From IMG/VR virus record IMGVR_UViG_3300037755_000538, positions 1 through 32,135 of that record: DNA of 32,135 nucleotides, one strand, 5' to 3'. This DNA is from a virus. Lineage: Duplodnaviria; Caudoviricetes. Numbering within the stretch: position 1 is the stretch's first letter; the number at the start of each line of letters is the position of its first letter. The notes beneath the pieces were generated by a model that was given only the letters and a program-made list of their open reading frames with translations, did not search any database and was not told the DNA's origin. Below are positions 20,916-32,135 of the stretch, piece by piece. The position numbers and the translations under genes were made by a program.

Positions 20916-22436
20916 TTAGCTGCCGGCGCTGCGGACGCCGCCGCGCGGCTCTTGTTTCCGGACGCCGAAATCGTGATAGGCCCGCGTCTGAATGCCGAGC
21001 GTGTTGAAATCGGCATCGGCGCTTTCCACCGTGGGCATTTCCTGACCGTTCAGGAAAACCACCTCGATCACTGGCATATCGGCAGGGTCCGCCAGTAGAT
21101 ACCAGGCGGCAGCCGAGTTGCCAGTGAAGGTGGAGTTTTCCATGTACGGAGAAGACGCCACCCGGTAACGCCCTTGATAGACATTAACATTCGGCTGGGT
21201 GGTATCCGCTCCGGTCACGATCAATTGACCGCCCATCCAGCGGGTTGCCGTATTGAGCAGAGTAGGCGGAGCCAGCAAAATCGAAGGCTGAATCCCCAGC
21301 GGTTTTCCGTCGGGGTCCGTCTGGTTCATGAAAATCACTTCCGCCGCGTTGATGGCCGCACCATCCGCCGTGCCCAACGCGCTGCCCGCGCCAGTGCTGA
21401 CGTTGCTGTTGCCGCTGGCGAAGAAAGAAGCGTTGTCCAGGAACTCCGTCCAGAAAACGGAATTGATCTTTTTCGATCCGCCGCGTCCGAGTTTTTGGGG
21501 AACCCGCTGGAACGCGCCCACGTCATCGTTAATGATGTCCGTCCGGGTGATGGCAAGCATCTTCCCGTAGGTGTCCGCCCGGTTTCCATACGTGGTTTCG
21601 CCAAGCGTTCCGTGCTTGATTTCGCCCGTGGGACCGATGGCTTCATATTCCAGATCGCCCGTGAGTGAATAGCTGGAAATTTCGCGGAAGTCCCGAACCG
21701 GGCTGATGGCGGAGATCAATCGCCAAGTGGGATCCACCGCGTTGAAGTAGTCCACCAGCATCTTGTTCATGACATCCGAGAGGATGCCGGGGAGCGAAAT
21801 CGTACTGAACCCCCCGGCGCGGATTGTTAGCCCCTCGGAGGTTCTGCCGAACGCCGCTTCCAAGAGCCGGCGGGTGTTTGCCGCACTGTCGATATGCTCG
21901 CCATTGGCGGCAGCCGCCCGGAACAATAGTTGTTGAAGGCCGATTCCGTACCGGAAATACTTGTCGGTGGCGTCCAGCGTTTTGGAGTCGAAGACTTTCT
22001 CCAAGGATCGCATCTTGAGCGTCTTGCAGATCGCCGCCGTGATGACGCTGTTGCCGATGTCCTTGCTGTTCGCGGGGCGCACAGGGCTGGGACCGATCGG
22101 ACGCATGGCCCGCAGCAAAGCCAGTTCAAAGCCCCTGGCGTCCACGGTCTTGTCCTTATGGGCCGCATTGACGATGTTTTCAATCGTCTCCAGTTGCGTG
22201 GGGTATTCACGGATGGCGTCAGCCGCCAGCTTGTCGATTTCTTCGATACGGGCTTTTTCTTGTCGCTCGGCTTGCAGCGTTTTCAGGAAGTCCGCCCCGT
22301 GGGGGGATTCCGGCGGCTTTTGTTCCGCCTCGAACTGAGCCTTCAATTTTTTGACGGCTTTTTCCGAGAGTGCTTCCACGTCTTCACCTTCTTCGATGAA
22401 GTCGTTGGCGATCAACCATTTGGTGAAATCGTCCAT
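20916..22436 (-). CDS. Major capsid protein (Mu gpT-like) with N-terminal scaffold-like region
   Basis: TYGKMLAITRTDIINDD, AWYLLADP, IEVVFLNG, HDFGV motifs; own AAGGA RBS. Confidence 0.88.
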   Translation of the reverse strand: MDDFTKWLIANDFIEEGEDVEALSEKAVKKLKAQFEAEQKPPESPHGADFLKTLQAERQEKARIEEIDKLAADAIREYPTQLETIENIVNAAHKDKTVDARGFELALLRAMRPIGPSPVRPANSKDIGNSVITAAICKTLKMRSLEKVFDSKTLDATDKYFRYGIGLQQLLFRAAAANGEHIDSAANTRRLLEAAFGRTSEGLTIRAGGFSTISLPGILSDVMNKMLVDYFNAVDPTWRLISAISPVRDFREISSYSLTGDLEYEAIGPTGEIKHGTLGETTYGNRADTYGKMLAITRTDIINDDVGAFQRVPQKLGRGGSKKINSVFWTEFLDNASFFASGNSNVSTGAGSALGTADGAAINAAEVIFMNQTDPDGKPLGIQPSILLAPPTLLNTATRWMGGQLIVTGADTTQPNVNVYQGRYRVASSPYMENSTFTGNSAAAWYLLADPADMPVIEVVFLNGQEMPTVESADADFNTLGIQTRAYHDFGVRKQEPRGGVRSAGS

Positions 22437-22486
22437 AGCGGGTTTCCTTTTTGTTTGCCGCTGCTAGCGACGTGGCTGGGATAGTT

Positions 22487-23083
22487 TCAAATTCCTCGAC
22501 GCTCGCGCCGCTGGAATCCCTTTTTCGTTTTGCCGCTGGCGGCAATCGTGGTTTTGGTTTTCCGGTCGGCGCCCAGGGCGACAACCGAGATTTCGTAAAC
22601 CGTGCTTTTGCGGGCCACCAACACGGGGCCTGCGACCGTCTTCCCGTTGACCTTGATTTTCTCGCCTTCCTTGACGGACTCGAACTCTTCGACGCTCGCC
22701 CCAATGGAGGCTTGCCAGGGGAAGCCTCGCTTGGCGGAAGTCACCACATCGCGGCTGTGTTCGTTGTCGGCGCTGATTATCCCGCTGGCCGTGATGTCGG
22801 TTGCCGAGATTATCGCTTCACCGTGGCCGACCACCTTTTCTCGATCATGTTCGCGGAAGATTGGAATCTGCTTGTTGGCGACCTTAACGCCCCCGAGGTC
22901 AACAATCACCGGGCGAAAGAACCCAGAGACCTCCATTGCCCCGCCGGTGTAGGCGGTCATCCTGAATGTCGGGATTTTCTCACCGCCTTCGGCGGCTTCA
23001 ATCGCCCCCCACTCCAGGGATGCCGTGAGTTGCAGTTTTTCCGGTTCGTTGCTGACGGCCGCCAAAAGATCAAGCTGTTTCAT
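22487..23083 (-). CDS. Prohead maturation protease
   Basis: AYTGG, PIFREHD, GFPWQASIGA, EISVVALGAD motifs. Confidence 0.82.
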   Translation of the reverse strand: MKQLDLLAAVSNEPEKLQLTASLEWGAIEAAEGGEKIPTFRMTAYTGGAMEVSGFFRPVIVDLGGVKVANKQIPIFREHDREKVVGHGEAIISATDITASGIISADNEHSRDVVTSAKRGFPWQASIGASVEEFESVKEGEKIKVNGKTVAGPVLVARKSTVYEISVVALGADRKTKTTIAASGKTKKGFQRRERRGI

Positions 23084-24588
23084 TGTGAATCCTCATCTTC
23101 CGTGTCGTCGTCGTCCTCATCATCGTCTTCATCATCGGGAGTTGCCGGTTGAGTCGCGGGGGCGGATGGGTATCGTTTTTCGAGTTTGCGCTTTCGCAAC
23201 TCCACCACTGTGATTCCAAGTTCTTTGGCCACTTGCCGCTGCTGATCTTCCCAATCGCGGCCGTTCTTCGCCTGATAATCGGCTTCGCTCATCAAGCCTT
23301 CGGAAATCAAAGTCGTCGCGGCATCGGCTTCTTTTTTGGGATCGACGTGTTCGTGCCCATCCCATCGCCATTCGTGCGAAGGCGGTTCGCGGACATCGCG
23401 GAACTGCGGAAGAAGCACATTCTCAACCCGCCGAGCTTCATCCCACCATGCAAGAAAGATGCGTTCCAAGCACACGGAATCGGTGAAGATGCGATCCACG
23501 CGAATGGATTTGAAATAGGTCTGGTGATCTAAGCGACCGGAGGCGTAGTTGTAGCCCGAAGAATCCCCGGCGGCGATGTTGTACGGCATTCCAAGACACC
23601 GCGCGATTTCATTGATGATCTCGCGCTTGAACATCCCGTAGGTCGTCGCCGGCTGCTCGGCTTTCATCTGGAACGGAGTCCAGCCTTTTGGCAAGGTCAT
23701 CGCCGAGCGGCGTTCCAGGTCGAACAAGTCCAATGGTTCCAGGTCGTCCGGATCTTCCGGGGCGGCTTGCGTATGAAGTAAAATCGCCAGGTCCGCTGCT
23801 GTCTCCGCCGCCGCGATCACCGCCAGCGTGTACCGCCGGAGTTGAGAATAGAGTGGCAGGGCCGGCATGATTTCCGGTATTCCCCGCTGTTGACCGGGCC
23901 GCTCGGGGCGATAGTAATGGATCATGTTTCGCGCGGGAATGGTGTCGTAGTCCCCCACGAAATTGATGAACGTACCCAAGTCGCCGGGATGCTGCTTCAA
24001 GAGCGTGTAGGCCAGCGGGTTGCCGAAATCATCGTAGATAATCCCGTCCGACATATTGGGATCGGTGAGACTTACCCACGGGCGGGCCACCTGATCGGCT
24101 TCGTAAAGTTTCAGGTCGAGTTTGACGGGATTTCTCAGCATTCCATTGGTCGTCAAGAGCGCGAACGATTCCCCATCCACGGTGCGGGCAATCCGCATGA
24201 TGGCGAGCTTCTGGCCGAGGCCCACAGCTTGCGACCATTTCCAAAATTCCGTTTCGATTTGGGTGTCAGTATCGTTATCGCCGCTTTGCATTTGAAGCTG
24301 CGGACCAGTGCCGATCACGTCACAGGCTAGCGTGCGGACCATGCCGGCGGCGTAGCTGTTGTTCGCAACTTCATAGCGGGCACGATTGCGAAGTACGCGG
24401 CGAATGTCGGGGGCGTTGGCCGCGGCTGCCGAGAGCGAATCGGATTCCGCCCAATGGCGTTCATTGTCGCGGACGGTTTGGGCCGCATCATATCTTGCTC
24501 GAATCCGCCGGGAGACCGTCTGTCGAAGCGAATCCCTGCCGGATTCCTTCTTAATTGGCGATCCCTTGTGGTCGAGTAATTGCGTCAT
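23080..24588 (-). CDS. Portal protein, lambda family
   Basis: ARYDAA, LRNRARYEVANNSY, RPGQQRGIP, NYASGRLD, HVDPKKEA. Confidence 0.93.
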   Translation of the reverse strand: MTQLLDHKGSPIKKESGRDSLRQTVSRRIRARYDAAQTVRDNERHWAESDSLSAAAANAPDIRRVLRNRARYEVANNSYAAGMVRTLACDVIGTGPQLQMQSGDNDTDTQIETEFWKWSQAVGLGQKLAIMRIARTVDGESFALLTTNGMLRNPVKLDLKLYEADQVARPWVSLTDPNMSDGIIYDDFGNPLAYTLLKQHPGDLGTFINFVGDYDTIPARNMIHYYRPERPGQQRGIPEIMPALPLYSQLRRYTLAVIAAAETAADLAILLHTQAAPEDPDDLEPLDLFDLERRSAMTLPKGWTPFQMKAEQPATTYGMFKREIINEIARCLGMPYNIAAGDSSGYNYASGRLDHQTYFKSIRVDRIFTDSVCLERIFLAWWDEARRVENVLLPQFRDVREPPSHEWRWDGHEHVDPKKEADAATTLISEGLMSEADYQAKNGRDWEDQQRQVAKELGITVVELRKRKLEKRYPSAPATQPATPDDEDDDEDDDDTEDEDSQ

Positions 24589-24788
24589 CCGAGGGCTCCG
24601 CCGGGGCGGATTCTTGCGATTCGCACGGGAAGTTTTCGGCTCTTCGAGATGTCTGCTTCTCGCAGGTGATTCAATGCGTCGATTTGATCTTTTAGGCTGT
24701 GTTGGCTAACGGTTAAGCCATCGGTCGAGACTTGCTTGGGTCCGCCGGCGTTTTCGCGAATGGCATCAGTGAGATCTTCAAGCGGCAT
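24585..24788 (-). CDS. Head completion/adaptor protein (gpW-like)
   Basis: Small gene coupled to the portal (ATGA overlap); GPKQVSTDGLTVSQHSLKDQI. Confidence 0.7.
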   Translation of the reverse strand: MPLEDLTDAIRENAGGPKQVSTDGLTVSQHSLKDQIDALNHLREADISKSRKLPVRIARIRPGGALG

Positions 24789-24813
24789 TGGCAACCCAGC
24801 CTTTCCTCCAAAC

Positions 24814-24850
24814 AAAAAAGCCGCGCAGGGGTGCAGCCCTGCACGGCTTT
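24814..24850 (-). terminator. Terminator/attenuator-like hairpin ahead of the head operon
   Basis: AAAGCCGTGCAGGG...CCCTGCGCGGCTTTTTT on minus strand. Confidence 0.55.
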
Positions 24851-24952
24851 CCGAAACGTCTCTTATTCAACGGTAAGCTGCGAAAACCTTATAATCAATA
24901 GGTTATGAGGCGAAACTAGTGGATTTGAGGTATCGCGTTACAGGGTATATAC

Positions 24953-24990
24953 AAAACAAAAATGCCGTTGCACAAATAATGTGCAACGGC
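24953..24990 (-). terminator. Intrinsic terminator closing the Cas12f-like cassette
   Basis: Perfect 11-bp stem GCCGTTGCACA/TGTGCAACGGC, then T-rich tail on minus strand. Confidence 0.7.
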
Positions 24991-25042
24991 TAGATCAATG
25001 CCGTTGTGACCCGCCCAGGCGGAGCCCTCGGATAAACCATGC

Positions 25043-25063
25043 CGCTCGCAATCCTCACACGCT
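25043..25063. repeat. 21-bp repeat, copy 2 (CGCTCGCAATCCTCACACGCT)
   Basis: 20/21 identical to 26565-26585; core is the reverse complement of 27104-27114. Confidence 0.85.
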
Positions 25064-25066
25064 TAC

Positions 25067-25381
25067 TTAGCTGTTGTGACCTTGGGGCTCGCAACCCCTA
25101 GTCACAACTCGCTTTAGTCGGCGGCTTGCGAGAGGTCTAGTTTGCTTAGCCCCCCTGCCGCGGTTCCGCCGGAGCACGATTGACGTAACCTCCGTCTCTC
25201 GGGAGATTTCGATGTCACGAGCACTGACGCGGATTTCCGAGTCACCGCAGCCCTCGCACGCATACCGTCGGCACTGGCCACACAGCGGCTGCCTCCCTTC
25301 GCGAATCATCTGCAGGAACCGCGATTTCGTCGGAATCTTGACCGGTTTCTCGCAGATGGCGCAGTCGATTTCACGCAGCAT
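25067..25381 (-). CDS. Possible small zinc-ribbon protein; 3' half may instead be ncRNA
   Basis: CAIC, CGQC, CEGC; overlaps the Cas12f-like stop; GGAG RBS. Confidence 0.45.
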   Translation of the reverse strand: MLREIDCAICEKPVKIPTKSRFLQMIREGRQPLCGQCRRYACEGCGDSEIRVSARDIEISRETEVTSIVLRRNRGRGAKQTRPLASRRLKRVVTRGCEPQGHNS

Positions 25382-26537
25382 CTTTCTTCTCCTTTTCGGC
25401 TTTCACGATTTCTCCGATCTTGAGTTTTTGAATCCTCAGTTCGATGCCGTGTTTCGCCAGTGAGTTTTTCAGGTCGCCAACGAATCGTGTCCAATCCCAG
25501 GTAACACCCGAACGCTCAAACCAGCATTTGGTTTTGGCCGGCCCGGTCGGTTCGCGGAACAGAACAACGCCGGCCTCTTGCCGCTTGGCCTGATTCACCA
25601 CATCCTTGATCATCCGCCGGCGGACTTCATTGACGATGTTCCGTAGTTGCTTCCGGCGAAGCATCACGGCGGCATCAATCTTCTTTCGGCCATGACCTGC
25701 TCCGTTCCGCTGTCGATAACGCCAGCCAATGGCTTTGATCATCGCTTCAATGCGGGCCGTCTGACGCAACAAATAGCGGCCATCCCCAATGAACCACGGG
25801 AGGGGGCGGGACTCCGAGACTATCTGGAAAGGCCGCTCCGGGTCTCCATCCACGCTGGGAATCACCGGGGAAAGCGTCACGATGATTTCCGGGTTGGCTT
25901 CCGGCTGCTCGAATGCCACCGGCAAAAACCAATACCACTCGCCATCCTTTTCGAGCAACTTGCTATCTGCCAGCTTTCGTTTTTCCTGTGAAAGTTCCAA
26001 CAAAATGCGCTTAAAACTCGGGGGCATGTCCCGTAAGGAAATCGTGAGAATCAGAGGTTCCGCCCCGCGCAACAGGCGGGAGACTGTGAGGTTGGATTCA
26101 TCGCCCATCTCCACGGTGCACTGCTTGTTGTGGAGAGGGATTTCCGTAGCCGTGAAAAACGGAGGCCGATCCTCATAGGACAGAATCGCGTCCTTGCGTT
26201 TTGCCCGCCGTCCCTCAACTTCCATTCCCCGCCGCCAGTCTACCTTGCCATTCAGGTAAGCTCCGACTTGTTTGGCGATCATCGAGACGGCAAAGGTTCC
26301 GAGTTCCGGGGCCTTTTCAATGACCGCGTGATAGAGCTTGGTCGATTCGCTCTTGGGCTTGTCTCCGTGCTTGGACTTAATCAGACGCTTGGATTGCCTT
26401 TCGGTTTCCGGCATTCCCCGCTGACGGAGCAGCCAGTTTTCCGCCGCTACATTGCGGGCCTTGCGGCATAGGTCCGCGATGGCTTGCAGGTCCGCTTCGC
26501 TGGCTAGCTTGAACTTTAGGACGATGAAGGATTTCAT
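25371..26537 (-). CDS. Cas12f/TnpB-like protein, predicted nuclease-dead and C-terminally truncated (388 aa)
   Basis: Collinear with Cas12f1 by eye: AILSYEDRPPFF, ADSKLLEKDGEWYWFLPVAFE, GAGHGRKK, DVVNQAKRQEAGVVLFRE, WDWTRFVGDLKNSLAKHGI; RuvC-I GIDLG replaced by VTLSP; no zinc finger or RuvC-III; AGGAG RBS. Confidence 0.78.
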   Translation of the reverse strand: MKSFIVLKFKLASEADLQAIADLCRKARNVAAENWLLRQRGMPETERQSKRLIKSKHGDKPKSESTKLYHAVIEKAPELGTFAVSMIAKQVGAYLNGKVDWRRGMEVEGRRAKRKDAILSYEDRPPFFTATEIPLHNKQCTVEMGDESNLTVSRLLRGAEPLILTISLRDMPPSFKRILLELSQEKRKLADSKLLEKDGEWYWFLPVAFEQPEANPEIIVTLSPVIPSVDGDPERPFQIVSESRPLPWFIGDGRYLLRQTARIEAMIKAIGWRYRQRNGAGHGRKKIDAAVMLRRKQLRNIVNEVRRRMIKDVVNQAKRQEAGVVLFREPTGPAKTKCWFERSGVTWDWTRFVGDLKNSLAKHGIELRIQKLKIGEIVKAEKEKKDAA

Positions 26538-26564
26538 TGTTCTCCTTTTCTTCACGCGCTGGCA

Positions 26565-26585
26565 CGCTCGCCATCCTCACACGCT
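26565..26585. repeat. 21-bp repeat, copy 1 (CGCTCGCCATCCTCACACGCT)
   Basis: Intergenic, just upstream of the Cas12f-like RBS. Confidence 0.85.
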
Positions 26586-26590
26586 CGTGA

Positions 26591-27046
26591 TCAAACCAGT
26601 TCCGCAACCCGGCCCGCTCGCCCGAGCTTGGTCAGGGTCTGGTCATGCCGGGTTCGCAGTTCGGCAAGCTCCGCTTCCAGTATCTCAACCTTGACCTCCA
26701 GTTCCTTGGCGTGAGCCTTCCAATTGATCTTTTCTTTCGCTTCGGTGTTCTTCGCCGGGGCAGAAAGATCGATCATGGCCCAGATGTTGTGCGAGTATTC
26801 GTCCCACGTCGCCTTGGTTGGATTCTTGCGGTAGGCCCGCAGCATGTTCGCGAGCGACGGCTTGCCGCCGAAGTGGGCAAAGCCGGTGGCCTCCAGATGT
26901 TCCACCAGTGCTGTCTGCCCGCCGTACTCTTCACAGTATTCCGGATCGTCCGCGATCTCGGACGCCAACTTGAGCATGTCGAACAGGTTCGTTCGTGCCT
27001 TCTTGCCGAGCTTCTTCAATTCGGCGTGTTTTTGTTTCGAGTCCAT
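26591..27046 (-). CDS. Hypothetical protein with C-terminal coiled coil
   Basis: AAGGA RBS; co-oriented between the ncRNA and the Cas12f-like gene. Confidence 0.75.
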   Translation of the reverse strand: MDSKQKHAELKKLGKKARTNLFDMLKLASEIADDPEYCEEYGGQTALVEHLEATGFAHFGGKPSLANMLRAYRKNPTKATWDEYSHNIWAMIDLSAPAKNTEAKEKINWKAHAKELEVKVEILEAELAELRTRHDQTLTKLGRAGRVAELV

Positions 27047-27066
27047 TGCTTGATCCTTTCGAGTTC

Positions 27067-27268
27067 AAAAAAAAGAGAAACCGCCCGGAATGAGACTGTC
27101 GGCGCGTGTGAGGACTCGAACGCCCTGCCTTCCGCGAGCGGAAAGCGCATCGTTCGCTTATGGGTTTCGCCGAGATGGCCAAAAAGCACGTTGGGCTTTT
27201 CAGATGCTCGGCATTCGGGCTGCGAGTGCCCGCAAGCTCCAACCGACAGTCTCATTCCGGGCGGTTTC
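27067..27268 (-). ncRNA. Candidate tracrRNA/omegaRNA-like guide scaffold
   Basis: Perfect 26-bp inverted repeat (27077-27102/27243-27268) enclosing several hairpins, then a U-tract; 3' segment complementary to the two 21-bp repeats. Confidence 0.72.
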
Positions 27269-27289
27269 ATTGCCATATTCAGTCTTGGT

Positions 27290-27340
27290 GTTATACTTGT
27301 ACGGAATAATAGACCGAATGTCAATGATTTTCCCGTACAA
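27290..27340. promoter_or_regulatory. Divergent promoter region with inverted operator-like repeat
   Basis: Minus-strand TTGACA at 27324-27319; TTGTACGG (27297-27304) and CCGTACAA (27333-27340); AT-rich. Confidence 0.55.
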
Positions 27341-27361
27341 ATAAAATAATGCAGGAAAAAC

Positions 27362-27553
27362 GTGCCGAAAAAGAGATCTAAGAAAAAATCGCGGGGGAGA
27401 CCGCCGGTCCCAAGGGCTGAACGGCGGGACGAATCCATTCGGATCGCGCTAACGATGAATGAAAAGCGAAAGATCGAATCGGCAGCAAAAGCCGCCGGCC
27501 TGTCGATTTCGGATTACGGGCGAAAACTTCTGTTGGAAAATACCGTTCATTGA
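27362..27553 (+). CDS. Ribbon-helix-helix regulator with RGRP motif
   Basis: RGRPP...SIRIALTMNEKRKIESAAKAAGLSISDYGRKLLL. Confidence 0.75.
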   Translation: MPKKRSKKKSRGRPPVPRAERRDESIRIALTMNEKRKIESAAKAAGLSISDYGRKLLLENTVH

Positions 27554-27630
27554 AACGTCTATGGTTTTTAGTGGCTCAGTCTGGCATGATTCAGTGTTCG
27601 GCAATTTCATTTCTTGGGAAAGGCGAAGCC

Positions 27631-28071
27631 ATGAAAACCGGCGAACCAAAGAAGAAACGTGAAGCCCCCTGGACGCTCATCAGCTTTCTCTTGTGCGGCA
27701 TCTTCGTGGTCTGGTTCGGAATCTTCAATCTTCAAAAAGAGGATTCAAGAAACCAGCGGCCGGCGATTAAGGCTGGAGTAAGCTTGAAACTCGGATCGTG
27801 GTCTGGAAGTGGCGCGAAAACAACGGAGAAATTTGAATCGGTTACTGGCGAGCTGGAATTTGTCTGGGATGCCAAGCAGACGGACAATGAGATTGAGGGG
27901 ATATTCCAAATTTATTCCTATGGATCGGGTGGAATGAAAATTCCGGCGAATCAGATTATCTCCGGCACGGTTGCGGAATCTGGTTTTTTGCATGGAGATC
28001 CTGGTATTTATTACCTCACCATCAATGCGGCCCATTGCAGTTGGTCCGTTGACGTTTACGAACGGCGATAG
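27631..28071 (+). CDS. Single-pass membrane protein with beta-rich extracytoplasmic domain
   Basis: Basic N-terminus, hydrophobic WTLISFLLCGIFVVWFGIF, C-terminal PGIYYLTINAAHCSWSVDV. Confidence 0.7.
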   Translation: MKTGEPKKKREAPWTLISFLLCGIFVVWFGIFNLQKEDSRNQRPAIKAGVSLKLGSWSGSGAKTTEKFESVTGELEFVWDAKQTDNEIEGIFQIYSYGSGGMKIPANQIISGTVAESGFLHGDPGIYYLTINAAHCSWSVDVYERR

Positions 28072-28100
28072 CGATTCGACGGGGAGGCCGTGATGGGTAA

Positions 28101-28328
28101 TCACCAAAAATCCCCCTGATCGTCCCGGTAATCATAAGCGTCCAGCTCCGTCCATCGCGTGCGCATCGGGCTGAAATCCCAAATCGGCTTGAGCTTCACG
28201 AATTGGCTGACGCAAAACAACCGGCAGGCCCACGCCAGGAAGTCGCCCCAGCCGGATTCGATGCTCAACAGCTTATCCGGCTTGCCCGCGAAGTATCGAC
28301 GCGCCGCCCGCGCCGAGGGGAACGCCAT
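28101..28328 (-). CDS. Hypothetical protein
   Basis: 75 aa; GGAG upstream; no motif. Confidence 0.35.
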   Translation of the reverse strand: MAFPSARAARRYFAGKPDKLLSIESGWGDFLAWACRLFCVSQFVKLKPIWDFSPMRTRWTELDAYDYRDDQGDFW

Positions 28329-28412
28329 CTTGTATTCCGACTCCCTGCCGGTGATGTGACATTTGAGCGTGATCGTGAAATGTCTCAGACAGCCTCCGTT
28401 AGTGGAACCCTG

Positions 28413-28721
28413 CTACGGCAATACGGAACCGAGGCTGAAGATAATTTGGAGAATGAACCAGCAAAGCCCAAGGAACAGGGTCACGGGGAACGTGATTGGA
28501 GCCAAAATTAAAAACAGAAGCATCGCGAAGCCATCTTCTTCCTGCTGAACCGAGCCTCTCGAAGCCAAGAGAACCAGTGATGAAAGCATGCCCAAGTAGC
28601 AAGTCGTGAGGTACGCGACTCTGGTGAGCTTTGAATTTTTCATGTTCGTTGATGCTTGTTCATAAAACATTCGAGAGAAGCTTCCTCGCCAGTGTTTCAT
28701 ATCAATCCTCCCTGTCAGCAA
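28413..28721 (-). CDS. Small membrane protein, 2-3 hydrophobic segments (start uncertain)
   Basis: Long hydrophobic stretches. Confidence 0.5.
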   Translation of the reverse strand: MLTGRIDMKHWRGSFSRMFYEQASTNMKNSKLTRVAYLTTCYLGMLSSLVLLASRGSVQQEEDGFAMLLFLILAPITFPVTLFLGLCWFILQIIFSLGSVLP

Positions 28722-28926
28722 TGTGAAATTCGGGGATCTTTTTATTCACGGTACGGCTTTCCGGTTTCGTGCCAAGACAGGCAGATTTGCATGCCGTTTT
28801 TCTTCTCTTTCGACATAGTATTCATTGCCTTCGCGTTTTTCTTCCGAAGCCGCTTGGCTTCCCTTTTGCGTTTTTTCATTGGTCTTTCCACGTCTCTGGA
28901 TTTTTAACAACCCGAATTTCCATCTC

Positions 28927-29124
28927 TCAATCCCCCTCCACGAAAGCCCGTTCAAAAAACTCGAACTTGCAGTAGCGACACCGGCGCTTGCGTCGCGTGA
29001 ACCGGCCTGAATGCCGAGTGAACCGAACCGGAACGTGCCGGCAATTACACTTCGGACACCGAACGCCAGATTCCCGGACATCCTCAGCTTTTGGCTTGTC
29101 GTCTTGCTCTTCCAAAGCGATCAC
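28927..29124 (-). CDS. Zinc-ribbon protein (Ogr/Delta- or NrdR-N-like)
   Basis: CPKC...TR...RRKRRCRYC...F. Confidence 0.7.
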   Translation of the reverse strand: MIALEEQDDKPKAEDVRESGVRCPKCNCRHVPVRFTRHSGRFTRRKRRCRYCKFEFFERAFVEGD

Positions 29125-29142
29125 CGCACTAATCCCTTTCGT

Positions 29143-29493
29143 TTACAGAAGTGGCAACCGATCCATCCACGTCTCGGGAATCAATCGCTCTCTCAAGAGT
29201 TCTTCACCGTAATTGCCGATTTCCGGGAGTGATGGATGCGAGACGCCTAACTCCCAGCAACCGTGATGTGCCGAATAGCTCAGCGAGTGGACAACGCAAT
29301 TCTTTAGCTCGGGACGGAACTGCTCGACGATCGATTGAATATGCGATTGAGTCTCTTGCTTCGATGGCGAAGCAGCCAGCACTTTCATGAGGGGATCGAT
29401 CAGCGAAACATCCCTCCGGGTGATAAAAAACACTTGGGCGTGATCCGGGAACATATAGAACGGATCGACAAATTCCTTGATTTCTGGTTTCAT
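29143..29493 (-). CDS. Hypothetical protein
   Basis: 116 aa, operon context, RBS. Confidence 0.6.
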   Translation of the reverse strand: MKPEIKEFVDPFYMFPDHAQVFFITRRDVSLIDPLMKVLAASPSKQETQSHIQSIVEQFRPELKNCVVHSLSYSAHHGCWELGVSHPSLPEIGNYGEELLRERLIPETWMDRLPLL

Positions 29494-29511
29494 TCCTTAT
29501 ATCCCTTTCGC

Positions 29512-29919
29512 TTAGTCGCCGGTCCACACGCCATCGGGCCTGAGTTGCGCCAACGCCAGAACTTCGCACAAGGCCCCCTTCACATTGCCCTCGCTGGGTT
29601 GCCAATAGTCATCATCGACATCGTCAGCCAACTGGTCAATCGCCGCCCTTAGGATTGGGATTGACTCCGCCCCGGTCAGCCCATAAATCGCCCGGATGCT
29701 GTGCAGCTTGCCATCCTCCTGGGCCATGTGGTGATGCTTTTCATCTGGTTCACGGGCTGGCAGCACCCGATCCAGATGCAGGGAATAGTTGTAGGTGATG
29801 TTGAACTCCGCCCTCAGGCAACCGCCCATCTGATATGTCCCGCCTTTCATCTGGTGTGGTTCATCCAGTTGCAAAACCGCACCGCTCGCCGGTTCCCGAA
29901 GTTCGATGTCGTAGCTCAT
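29512..29919 (-). CDS. Hypothetical phage protein
   Basis: MSYDIEL...NITYNYS...DYWQPSEGN...RPDGVW; RBS. Confidence 0.7.
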   Translation of the reverse strand: MSYDIELREPASGAVLQLDEPHQMKGGTYQMGGCLRAEFNITYNYSLHLDRVLPAREPDEKHHHMAQEDGKLHSIRAIYGLTGAESIPILRAAIDQLADDVDDDYWQPSEGNVKGALCEVLALAQLRPDGVWTGD

Positions 29920-29936
29920 GGTTTTTTCCCTTTCGT

Positions 29937-32099
29937 TTATCGACGTGACTTCCGCCCCTGGATTTCCGAGAGGCTGATTTTCTTTTTCTTAGGTTCCACC
30001 ACTTCGCCGCCAATGGAGATTCCATCGAACGCCGCCAGCGCCGCACAACCCACCAAGCAATCCAGCCAGTGATTATCCTCGCCCACCTTCCGTTCGTATT
30101 CCAATTTCTTTCTCCCGTTGGACTCGGCCAGCGTCCGGCGTTCCGCCAGCAAGTGGCTTGCCAACATTTGATGCTTCATTTTGCTGTCGCCGTAGAAAGT
30201 AATCGGGGCTTCGCCGCCCAACGGCATCGCCAGCCGATCATGCACAAATTCTTTTGCGAAATTGACATCGACTTCCAAAAGTTTTTGTTGCTTCCCCTGC
30301 GGATAGACGAACCGCCACGGAAACCCCTTGCCCCGGCGTTCACCCTGCTTCAAGGCCCGCTGGAGCATTGGACATTGCTTCGTCGTGATCCCCTCGCCTT
30401 TCATGGGCAAAACAAGCTGCCCCCGCGAGTTTTGACGGCAAAAACGGTACACAATCTCCGATTTCCAGCCCATATCGATCCCGACACGGGAAAGATCGTG
30501 ATTGACGCCAGAATCCCCGCTGAATTTCAATCCGAACAAGCGGTCAGTCAACGACTCCAAGCCGCTGTAGAGCGACTCATCAACCGACGATGGCTTGCTC
30601 TGAGTTTTTAGGAACCAATCCTCAAGCGTCGGACTGATCTCGTTGGACGTGAAATACTCCCGCCGCTGGTCGGGGAAAGCACCGTACCCGAGGACATAGC
30701 CGCCAAACCGGGAAGTCCAACCACAAACCATCCACCACAGCACTTCCCCGCCGGTGTCGATGAACGAATTGATGAGCGTCACATCCGCCGGCACATGGAA
30801 CGCCTGGTGATTGTTGACGCGGTTGACCAGGCTCTCGAATTTCGGCATTCCGCTCATGTCGATCGCTTCGGGCGGGTCGTTCTGATATTCGCAGAAGATG
30901 AAATCCCAGCCCTTGTCCGCCGCCGCGTTGTGGACGTGCTGAATCGCGGAATACTCCAGGGGCTTGCCATCTTCCCCTGGCTGGGAAATGAAGCGATTCG
31001 GGTTCGCAACAACGGCCCCAGCGTCCATTTCCTCCCGATGCTCCAGGTAGAACGCCGTCGCCTGCCGGCCGTCCAAGTCTTCCGTGCCGCGCTTGCCGTC
31101 CTGCCGCAATTCAATGTAGCGGTCCCACTTGGCTTTTTCGTCCGGCCAACGCAACACTTGCCGATACCGAACACCCGAGAACCCCGGCTTGATCTGCGGA
31201 TTGGTGTATCTGGCCGCCAAGCAGTCTTGATTCTGGATTGTGCAGAGAAAAACCCGGGCAAGACGGGTATCAGGCCCCGCCAAGCCGCCGATGGCGTTCT
31301 CAATCTTGCGTTCCAGCTTGCCGATCTGGTGCAGGCTCCCTGCGACTTCCTCCGTTTCGACGTCGTCCAGCAAAACGAAATCCGGGCGATTCACCCCGCG
31401 CCGCAAACCACGGATGGAACCTTCGACGCCGCGTGCCGTCAACGCCACGCCCGCGGACTTGGACAGGTGGCGTTCATAGGAAATTTTGCATTGGAAGCAG
31501 CGAAAACCCCCGTTTTTTAGCGGTTTGGCGGGTTTATAGCACTTGGGGCACCATTCCAGGAAGACTTTCGGGAATTGAATCAAGGCCCCGCTCCATTTTA
31601 GGTGCGTCCGCACGCCTCGCACCGTCTGGGAGTTCGCCCCCTGCGGAGCGCCTTTCAAATCGCGGATGGGGACGCAAATTTCCGGGTAGTCTTCCGCGAG
31701 TAAATCGTTCGACTCGTATTCATTTTTGATATTTGACAGGATGTTCTCTGCGTCACTGCCGGTGGCCGACAAGATCACCGGGAACCGCAAATACCCCGTA
31801 AGCGGGCCATAGAAACCCGCAATTCCCTCGATAAGCGATGTTTTCCCGCTACCCCGGCTGTCGGCAATGCCCTTATCCCCCCCGTGCCGGATGCGATGGA
31901 CCAATTCCTTGATAATCTCCCGCTGGTTCTGCGTGAACGGCAGATAGAACTTGTGCGGGAAATAGGTGAGCAGGAACGTTTCCGCGTCCGCTTCGCAATT
32001 CAAGCGGCGCTGCGGAGATTGGACCGGTGGAATTTCCAGGTCTCGCTCAGCCGCTCGTTTTTTGTTGTTTAATTTTCTTTGTGACTCGTTATAAGTCAT
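29937..32099 (-). CDS. Terminase large subunit (GpA family)
   Basis: Walker A SRGSGKTS, Walker B RPDFVLLDDVE, EYQNDP, nuclease FID...NHWLDCLVG. Confidence 0.93.
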   Translation of the reverse strand: MTYNESQRKLNNKKRAAERDLEIPPVQSPQRRLNCEADAETFLLTYFPHKFYLPFTQNQREIIKELVHRIRHGGDKGIADSRGSGKTSLIEGIAGFYGPLTGYLRFPVILSATGSDAENILSNIKNEYESNDLLAEDYPEICVPIRDLKGAPQGANSQTVRGVRTHLKWSGALIQFPKVFLEWCPKCYKPAKPLKNGGFRCFQCKISYERHLSKSAGVALTARGVEGSIRGLRRGVNRPDFVLLDDVETEEVAGSLHQIGKLERKIENAIGGLAGPDTRLARVFLCTIQNQDCLAARYTNPQIKPGFSGVRYRQVLRWPDEKAKWDRYIELRQDGKRGTEDLDGRQATAFYLEHREEMDAGAVVANPNRFISQPGEDGKPLEYSAIQHVHNAAADKGWDFIFCEYQNDPPEAIDMSGMPKFESLVNRVNNHQAFHVPADVTLINSFIDTGGEVLWWMVCGWTSRFGGYVLGYGAFPDQRREYFTSNEISPTLEDWFLKTQSKPSSVDESLYSGLESLTDRLFGLKFSGDSGVNHDLSRVGIDMGWKSEIVYRFCRQNSRGQLVLPMKGEGITTKQCPMLQRALKQGERRGKGFPWRFVYPQGKQQKLLEVDVNFAKEFVHDRLAMPLGGEAPITFYGDSKMKHQMLASHLLAERRTLAESNGRKKLEYERKVGEDNHWLDCLVGCAALAAFDGISIGGEVVEPKKKKISLSEIQGRKSRR

Positions 32100-32135
32100 T
32101 TGCCAAAATCACTCTATCACTTTTGAGTTTTTTAC

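Follow-up and report, generated by a model that had tools for sequence, protein, structure and literature searches.

What is the RNA at the head of a small gene cassette in this phage, and why should its two ends be joined by so long a stem? The window, by which we mean the whole 32,135-nt stretch of DNA analysed, is a 32-kb virus record (Caudoviricetes; IMGVR_UViG_3300037755_000538) that is 68% complete and carries terminase, portal, major head and integrase genes. Between terminase and portal lies a minus-strand cassette that runs from the RNA through a 151-aa ORF, a half-repeat, a 387-aa ORF, a 104-aa ORF, a 36-nt repeat, a 34-nt spacer and an 8-nt repeat stub to a terminator-like hairpin (Table 1). 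We are confident that the RNA is the tracrRNA of a phage-carried Cas12f-type system. The RNA class is known; the system around it we have not found described.

Fold and conservation of the RNA

The RNA is about 190 nt long. A perfect 26-bp inverted repeat (27268-27243 with 27102-27077, 26/26 positions complementary, 140 nt between the arms) encloses a structured core, and a T8 tract follows 2 nt past the 3' arm; these parts and the inner hairpins lie on the minus strand where the earlier note had placed them. The arms are the longest of 37 inverted pairs within 22000-32135. The predicted fold of the region has an energy of -109 kcal/mol (z = -7.5), and 0/200 shuffled sequences are equally stable. 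No Rfam family matches the region. A promoter scan did not call the possible minus-strand promoter listed in Table 1. On the plus strand, two promoter-like sites at 27270-27347 face away from the RNA, toward a membrane-protein-like ORF at 27550-28071.

Table 1. Features of the cassette and its RNA, with positions in the window
Feature	Position	Strand	Basis or remark
Closing (head-to-toe) stem, 5' arm	27243..27268	-	26/26 against 3' arm; unrelated-sequence equivalents in 6 other loci
Stem 1 (P1)	27216..27232	-	loop 27227-27221; coordinates read from sequence
Stem 2 (P2), internal loop and apical hairpin	27169..27212	-	outer helix: 100% of cells paired
Stem 3 region	27117..27157	-	model alignment; two-sided change in 5/6 pairs
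Anti-repeat	27104..27116	-	13 bp with repeat
Closing stem, 3' arm	27077..27102	-	-55.8 kcal/mol with own 5' arm vs -4.7 with repeat 5' half
T8 tract	27067..27074	-	read from sequence
Possible promoter	27290..27324	-	TTGACA at 27324-27319; no well-spaced -10 box; read from sequence
151-aa all-helical protein, C-terminal coiled coil	26591..27046	-	31 homologues; also in distant L107/L108
Solo half-repeat	26567..26585	-	18/19 to repeat 3' end; just upstream of effector gene
387-aa Cas12f-fold effector	25371..26534	-	profile, Foldseek and motif counts
104-aa CxxC...CxxC protein	25067..25381	-	spans array leader and start of repeat
36-nt CRISPR repeat	25045..25080	-	length and 3' end as in array repeats of homologous loci
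34-nt spacer	25011..25044	-	nt 12-34 vs window 24587-24609, 22/23
Truncated second repeat (8 nt) and terminator-like hairpin	24964..25010	-	sequence and terminator scan
Phage's own homologue of spacer site	24587..24609	+	mismatched at spacer nt 1-11; small head gene end / portal start

Eighteen homologous loci were returned, 13 of them distinct. The gene for the CxxC protein and CRISPR repeats with 3' ends of the same type occur in 12/13, and the 151-aa gene together with a complete RNA in 6/13; another 6/13 are short contigs that end before the upstream region. In L004, a fragment ended by the contig edge, the CxxC gene, the repeats and the 151-aa gene are all missing within the fragment, and a cut-off tracrRNA (L004:6160-6272) lies downstream of the effector gene, with stem 1 right past the stop codon and no accessory genes upstream.

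The window and the six homologous loci provide seven complete RNAs, each beside an effector gene and, in 6/7, immediately ahead of the operon. The earlier note had made its reading depend on conservation beside homologous genes and had proposed a covariance model; the structure is conserved in these 7 distinct loci, and a model was built from six of the RNAs with L016 held out. Its consensus has 49 pairs, of which 35 show two-sided changes, a count reached by 0/500 shuffles, although the figure is generous because the structure derives from the same six sequences. Pairing is 88% in the alignment against 35-44% in slid controls, again with a structure given by those six. The model recovered the held-out RNA at 109 bits, complete with its own closing stem. 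Two-sided change affects 3/7 pairs of the stem 2 outer helix across six loci, and the window copy carries an extra hairpin (27146-27127) inserted into the stem 3 region. Under Watson-Crick-only scoring, internal mismatches of the closing stems comprise 9 G-U, 0 A-C and 5 others (p = 0.004), a bias that points to an RNA on this, the minus, strand.

The core pattern also matched 71 places elsewhere, 70 in GTDB genomes and one extra viral. None has cassette genes, and the flanking inverted repeat score is at least 14 in 0/71, compared with 21-25 in three true loci; we reject these matches as chance.

Cognate repeats and a Cas12f-fold effector

The cross test between each RNA and each repeat is more telling for tracrRNA identity than the covariation count. 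In 7/7 loci the anti-repeat pairs most strongly with its own repeat, in cognate duplexes of 10-13 bp; for the window the duplex is valued at -23.8 kcal/mol with its own repeat and at -5.7 to -11.2 with six foreign ones. A second site of contact, a 5-7-bp pseudoknot between the stem 1 loop and the repeat 3' end, was sought after the description in the accessible part of PMC11246509. The loop is complementary to the repeat 3' end in 7/7 loci and also in the distant loci L107 and L108, with compensating changes in L001, L011 and L107. In the window the loop CUCGCA is thus predicted to form a short repeat:anti-repeat pseudoknot with the repeat end UGCGAG. The earlier note had offered two partners for the loop ACUCGCA: the trans pairing with UGCGAG stands, and the cis pairing with CGAGU falls as a family feature, since that segment is not conserved and occurs only in this copy. 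One correction concerns the repeat, which is a 36-nt unit at 25080-25045; what stands at 26585-26567 corresponds to its 3' half alone.

A repeat occupies the solo half-repeat's place in L005 and L007 as well. The stretch from the half-repeat to the effector start (26566-26535) contains a ribosome site and resembles L005:4948-5000, in a distant locus; its role could be that of a fixed guide or of a regulatory leader. Inside the CxxC ORF, a leader hairpin (25106-25071, minus strand) has the first 8 nt of the repeat as its 3' side; we considered this hairpin as the repeat itself and rejected it, the repeat being fixed by the homologous arrays. The 26-nt arm as a guide against its own 5' end was likewise rejected, there being no repeat between anti-repeat and arm.

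Repeats elsewhere in the family vary. In L011 (580-1245 and 6457-7345) they are cut to ~14 nt and recur every 35 nt, with copies dispersed among genes as far as 6 kb away. The L108 contig, G005, has the repeat core 58 times on the plus and 19 times on the minus strand over 6717-57906, 41 of these copies in arrays around the effector, and its repeats are unusually variable in the 5' half. Solo repeat 3' halves at G002:26832 and 39426, 12-25 kb off the array, are possible stand-alone guides.

The neighbouring protein supports the same identification. The 53-sequence effector profile matches Cas12f chains at E values of 3e-9 to 2e-7 and the solved dCas12f (9n9c) at 1e-6; it is thus no closer to 9n9c than it is to active Cas12f. 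The structure model (pLDDT 92.8) finds AsCas12f1 as its best Foldseek match (E 2e-18), with Cas12m at fold rank 40. Full-length relatives number 73, the window protein included, and none was found in GTDB genomes, searched by peptide patterns, or in plasmids. With a Cas12f-fold neighbour, true arrays in homologous loci, a covarying structure, and a loop and anti-repeat that both track the local repeat, the earlier note's suggestion of a Cas12f-tracrRNA-like architecture is well borne out.

What that note did not mention is the loss of nuclease residues in the effector. The RuvC-I Asp is present in 0/82 family proteins, the RuvC-III motif in 0/82 and a CxxC in the tail in 3/82, and among 110 more distant full-length proteins an Asp occupies the RuvC-I position once and the RuvC-III motif never occurs. 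An array beside the effector, with repeats in 12/13 distinct loci, is a canonical type V-F feature of this family; an intact RuvC triad with a zinc-finger domain is one it does not have. Missing the RuvC-I Asp and the whole RuvC-III/zinc-finger end, the effector has, we infer from its sequence, lost nuclease activity. The RuvC-II Glu, kept in 69/82, counts against this reading. The more distant dead Cas12f-like proteins (about 110, P0118-P0238) include two whose loci we examined; both retain the three genes of the cassette and show either two types of repeat or arrays that are split.

Neither accessory gene, nor the effector gene, receives a name from Pfam, NCBIfam or PHROGs. The 151-aa protein has no fold match beyond its coiled coil and a lead to DUF3102 at a probability of only 0.87 in profile comparison; it is possibly a DNA-binding regulator. 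The CxxC gene, found in 12/13 distinct homologous loci, encodes four invariant Cys. Its third codon positions vary most (0.60, against 0.41 and 0.37), which argues that the ORF is coding, and it ends in or near the first repeat. That its product is a leader-linked factor is a guess.

Possible roles of the closing stem

The closing stem measures 22-26 bp in 7/7 loci, with a different arm sequence at each. Arm identity between loci is 0.43, near the shuffled level of 0.37, which indicates that length and pairing are kept and sequence is not. In the distant loci L107 and L108 (24-27% identity), whose RNAs the covariance model missed, there is no long stem: a local 14-bp hairpin and a U run replace the 3' arm, while both accessory genes, the arrays, stem 1, stem 2 and the anti-repeat are kept. 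The long stem is therefore an addition of one branch. Immediately ahead of stem 1 in the arm-less L108 a -10-like box can be read. In G004 a short multi-copy REP-like sequence, present in about ten places in the contig, starts right past the tracrRNA 3' arm.

Tentatively, we regard the closing stem as mainly a processing signal. Long stop-free frames of 93-341 codons enter the 5' arm in 4/7 loci, so the 5' end of the RNA may have to be cut, with the caveat that frames of ~100 codons can be chance in DNA this GC-rich. RNase III acts on about two helical turns of near-perfect duplex, whatever its sequence. The closing stem has that length in 7/7 loci, and the tracr:crRNA duplex alone would be short for the enzyme, being only 10-13 bp. 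A processing role is a plausible fit to the fixed stem length and to the frames entering the arm, most clearly in G001. There the whole cassette, from tracrRNA to truncated last repeat (L001:3329-8708), interrupts a RecD2 helicase gene and leaves two halves that are both open, one of which reads into the arm; no transposase is annotated alongside, and no empty-site relative was found.

On balance we favour a model in which the RNA is the tracrRNA of a phage Cas12f system whose effector lacks the RuvC-I and RuvC-III catalytic residues, its closing stem lets an RNase III-type enzyme release it, and the resulting complex binds the DNA of related phages uncut. Transcription of the RNA would read through into the three genes, with a ribosome site within about 20-50 nt. 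A host double-strand RNase of the RNase III type would cut the closing stem and free the RNA from the operon transcript; the freed tracrRNA would pair with repeat-spacer RNA, and the effector would bind it as a dimer. The complex may then sit on packaging genes of competing phages as a transcription roadblock, without cutting.

Against processing stands the ~18-bp stem of SpCas12f1, which belongs to an RNA built from complex-bound species and whose truncation keeps activity; this fits a stem that is retained. The closing stem could then be a structural clamp, longer than its SpCas12f1 counterpart and left uncut; stacked on the short anti-repeat duplex, it would stand in for the repeat 5' half and protect both RNA ends. 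SpCas12f1 offers the precedent, with the same layout and with stem-less variants that are less active in vitro in the accessible part of PMC12255294. Within the family, repeat 5' halves have decayed in L007 and L010, the repeats of L011 are down to ~14 nt as noted, and no pairing links the 3' arm to the repeat 5' half. We nonetheless think a clamp somewhat unlikely, as it leaves unexplained both the constancy of 22-26 bp in 7/7 loci and the origin of the 5' end where genes read into the arm, and the stem is absent from L107 and L108.

The terminator hairpin that holds the place of the 3' arm in L107 and L108 also speaks against processing, and fits a terminator role. Folding of the core, perhaps aided by the effector, would stop transcription before the three genes and so provide feedback control by long-range termination or attenuation. 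The position of the RNA directly ahead of the operon in 6/7 loci is as this would require, and a U-rich run follows the 3' arm in 5/7; in L013 and L016, however, there is none. A terminator scan, which admits loops no longer than 8 nt, did not call the stem. Terminators work with a short loop and a stem well below 25 bp, which counts further against this role, and we consider it unlikely.

It is tempting to speculate more broadly about the processing model and the distant branch together: an old, unnamed type V subtype of temperate phages may silence competitors with a dead Cas12f and two small partners, and one branch may have swapped a terminator hairpin for a 25-bp long-range stem that releases the RNA from whatever host transcript contains it and also controls how far transcription continues into the operon. 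This larger picture is doubtful as a whole. If it were true, one partner would be the helical protein with its coiled coil and the other a zinc-finger protein whose gene spans the array leader.

Spacers and targets

Positions 12-34 of the window spacer match the phage's own head-gene/portal junction at 22/23, and none of 150 shuffles exceeds 19. Translated, the spacer gives the peptide RPGGALG as in the carrier, with one synonymous change and a different stop codon; the end of the small head gene at this site is conserved in 2/3 relatives. A G001 spacer encodes a terminase peptide near-identical to that of its own phage (score 60, against a background maximum of 48 of 114). Both spacers mismatch the carrier at the repeat-proximal end. 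As Cas12 seeds lie next to the repeat, the two look acquired from relatives and harmless to self, and the window spacer was likely taken, to judge by its sequence, from the head-gene/portal junction of a related phage.

A homologue above background was found for only 2/38 full-length spacers and for 0/31 scored from G005; an L008 spacer matches G004 weakly (77% over 35 nt). No exact protospacer was found in IMG/VR (two patterns) or, for the G001 array, in GenBank phages, and these searches gave no PAM. By analogy with Cas12m and viral mini-arrays, the system probably silences related phages by binding their DNA and not cutting it.

The window spacer might instead act on its own phage, its 3' part being an antisense RNA to the ribosome site and start codon of the portal gene. 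The 22/23 match does span GGAG and reaches two bases into the start codon (ATG) of the portal gene, and there is no full second repeat for trimming. That match, however, stops exactly at the end of the conserved upstream gene, its single mismatch is synonymous and the stop codon differs; the G001 match is sense-oriented and inside a gene, and spacers have no significant strand bias (22/38, p = 0.42; classifier accuracy 68%). Regulation of the own phage is thus very unlikely. That the element is a miniature transposable element or a DNA-level inverted repeat (recombination site or cruciform) is hardly credible, despite its perfect terminal inverted repeat and the split RecD2 gene of G001, given a single copy in each of the window, G001, G002 and L011, arms that differ between loci around a core that follows the local repeat, a G-U over A-C bias that marks one RNA strand, and no true copy among the 70 GTDB pattern matches.

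Comparison with known systems

A search of titles and abstract openings found no paper on this cassette. No cas1 was found in 4 contigs. As to a link with CRISPR-associated transposons (V-K, Mu-type V-F), TniQ was matched in 0/5 contigs, though no positive control matched either, and no TnsBC or Mu transposase is annotated among the cassette neighbours scanned. What we have is a real and functional-looking tracrRNA of the Cas12f type; its head-to-toe stem is unusually long, and the dead-Cas12f phage cassette to which it belongs is conserved.

Such a stem in SpCas12f1 (type V-F) was reportedly first proposed by Wang in 2022. Like the RNA here, the SpCas12f1 tracrRNA runs from a 5' arm through stem 1 with a pseudoknot loop, stem 2 and further stems to the anti-repeat and a 3' arm that pairs back, at a similar size (153 nt versus about 190). 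The 153-nt species was identified from pulled-down complexes, according to the accessible part of PMC8548392. The head-to-toe stem is described in the available text of PMC12255294 as predicted, unresolved in the structure and dispensable, with most truncations cutting less well in vitro; judged by eye from the supplement it is ~18 bp, shorter than the 22-26 bp here. Unlike SpCas12f1, our RNA has no hairpin between anti-repeat and 3' arm and lies upstream of the operon instead of between gene and array, and the SpCas12f1 effector is an active nuclease with zinc fingers.

AsCas12f1, the closest fold match of the effector, shares the short and long repeat:anti-repeat duplexes; its guide has stems 1-4 and two such duplexes in the portions available of 10.1101/2023.07.03.547593 and PMC11246509. 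It differs in that nothing precedes the core on the 5' side of the RNA, the long duplex is extended and the RuvC is intact. The comparison with Cas12f tracrRNAs that the earlier note had called for therefore yields a matching two-duplex layout, with a precedent for the closing stem in SpCas12f1. Its statement that the AsCas12f1 guide opens with a short hairpin whose loop pairs with the repeat 3' end agrees with this published layout. The GCCGAG stem, which it gave as another AsCas12f1 feature, was not found as an exact hexamer in the main text of two structure papers, and is here a private variant of the family consensus GGCGAG...CUCGCC.

The dCas12f-sigmaE systems, like this one, have a nuclease-dead, C-terminally truncated Cas12f. 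Those tested use single guides without a tracrRNA and need sigmaE; a further dCas12f cluster, noted close to CRISPR arrays, has been proposed to act as a repressor (PMC13472631, available part). Here, in contrast, there are a separate tracrRNA, true arrays and two other accessory genes. The RNA is no fused single guide, for the anti-repeat is followed by the arm and not by repeat and guide, and the arrays lie apart. No Sigma70_r2 match or adjacent ECF sigma gene was found in 5 contigs, which are 63-70% complete, with the control matched in 10/14.

Cas12m (V-M) is not known to use a tracrRNA. It is larger and of a separate lineage, unlike the effector here (fold rank 40). Its interference by binding without cutting, as given in the accessible part of PMC11656645, is like that proposed for our system. 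Phage mini-arrays similarly carry spacers against related viruses on phages; they borrow host effectors, whereas this cassette brings its own (PMC12669027, in part). The analogy with silencing by binding and with viral mini-arrays also draws on PMC11013384.

The array-linked Cas12 groups V-U24, V-U43 and V-U44 have altered or inactive catalytic sites; V-U24 has an HTH partner, and V-U40-43 group with Cas12f1 (PMC10691335, available text). These groups and the array-linked dCas12f cluster may already cover the family, the comparison being by description only from the accessible parts of PMC10691335 and PMC13472631.

With an effector of 387 aa, the cassette offers a small natural candidate for DNA binding that is programmable and involves no cutting; its repeat, the architecture of its guide and its two partner genes are defined here. 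One branch carries the long closing stem and the other an ordinary terminator, and this natural pair allows a direct test of how the ends of type V tracrRNAs arise when repeat duplexes are short. By keeping a tracrRNA and arrays after loss of the RuvC-III end, the cassette represents the intermediate between Cas12f and single-guide dead forms that is postulated in the accessible part of PMC10691335.
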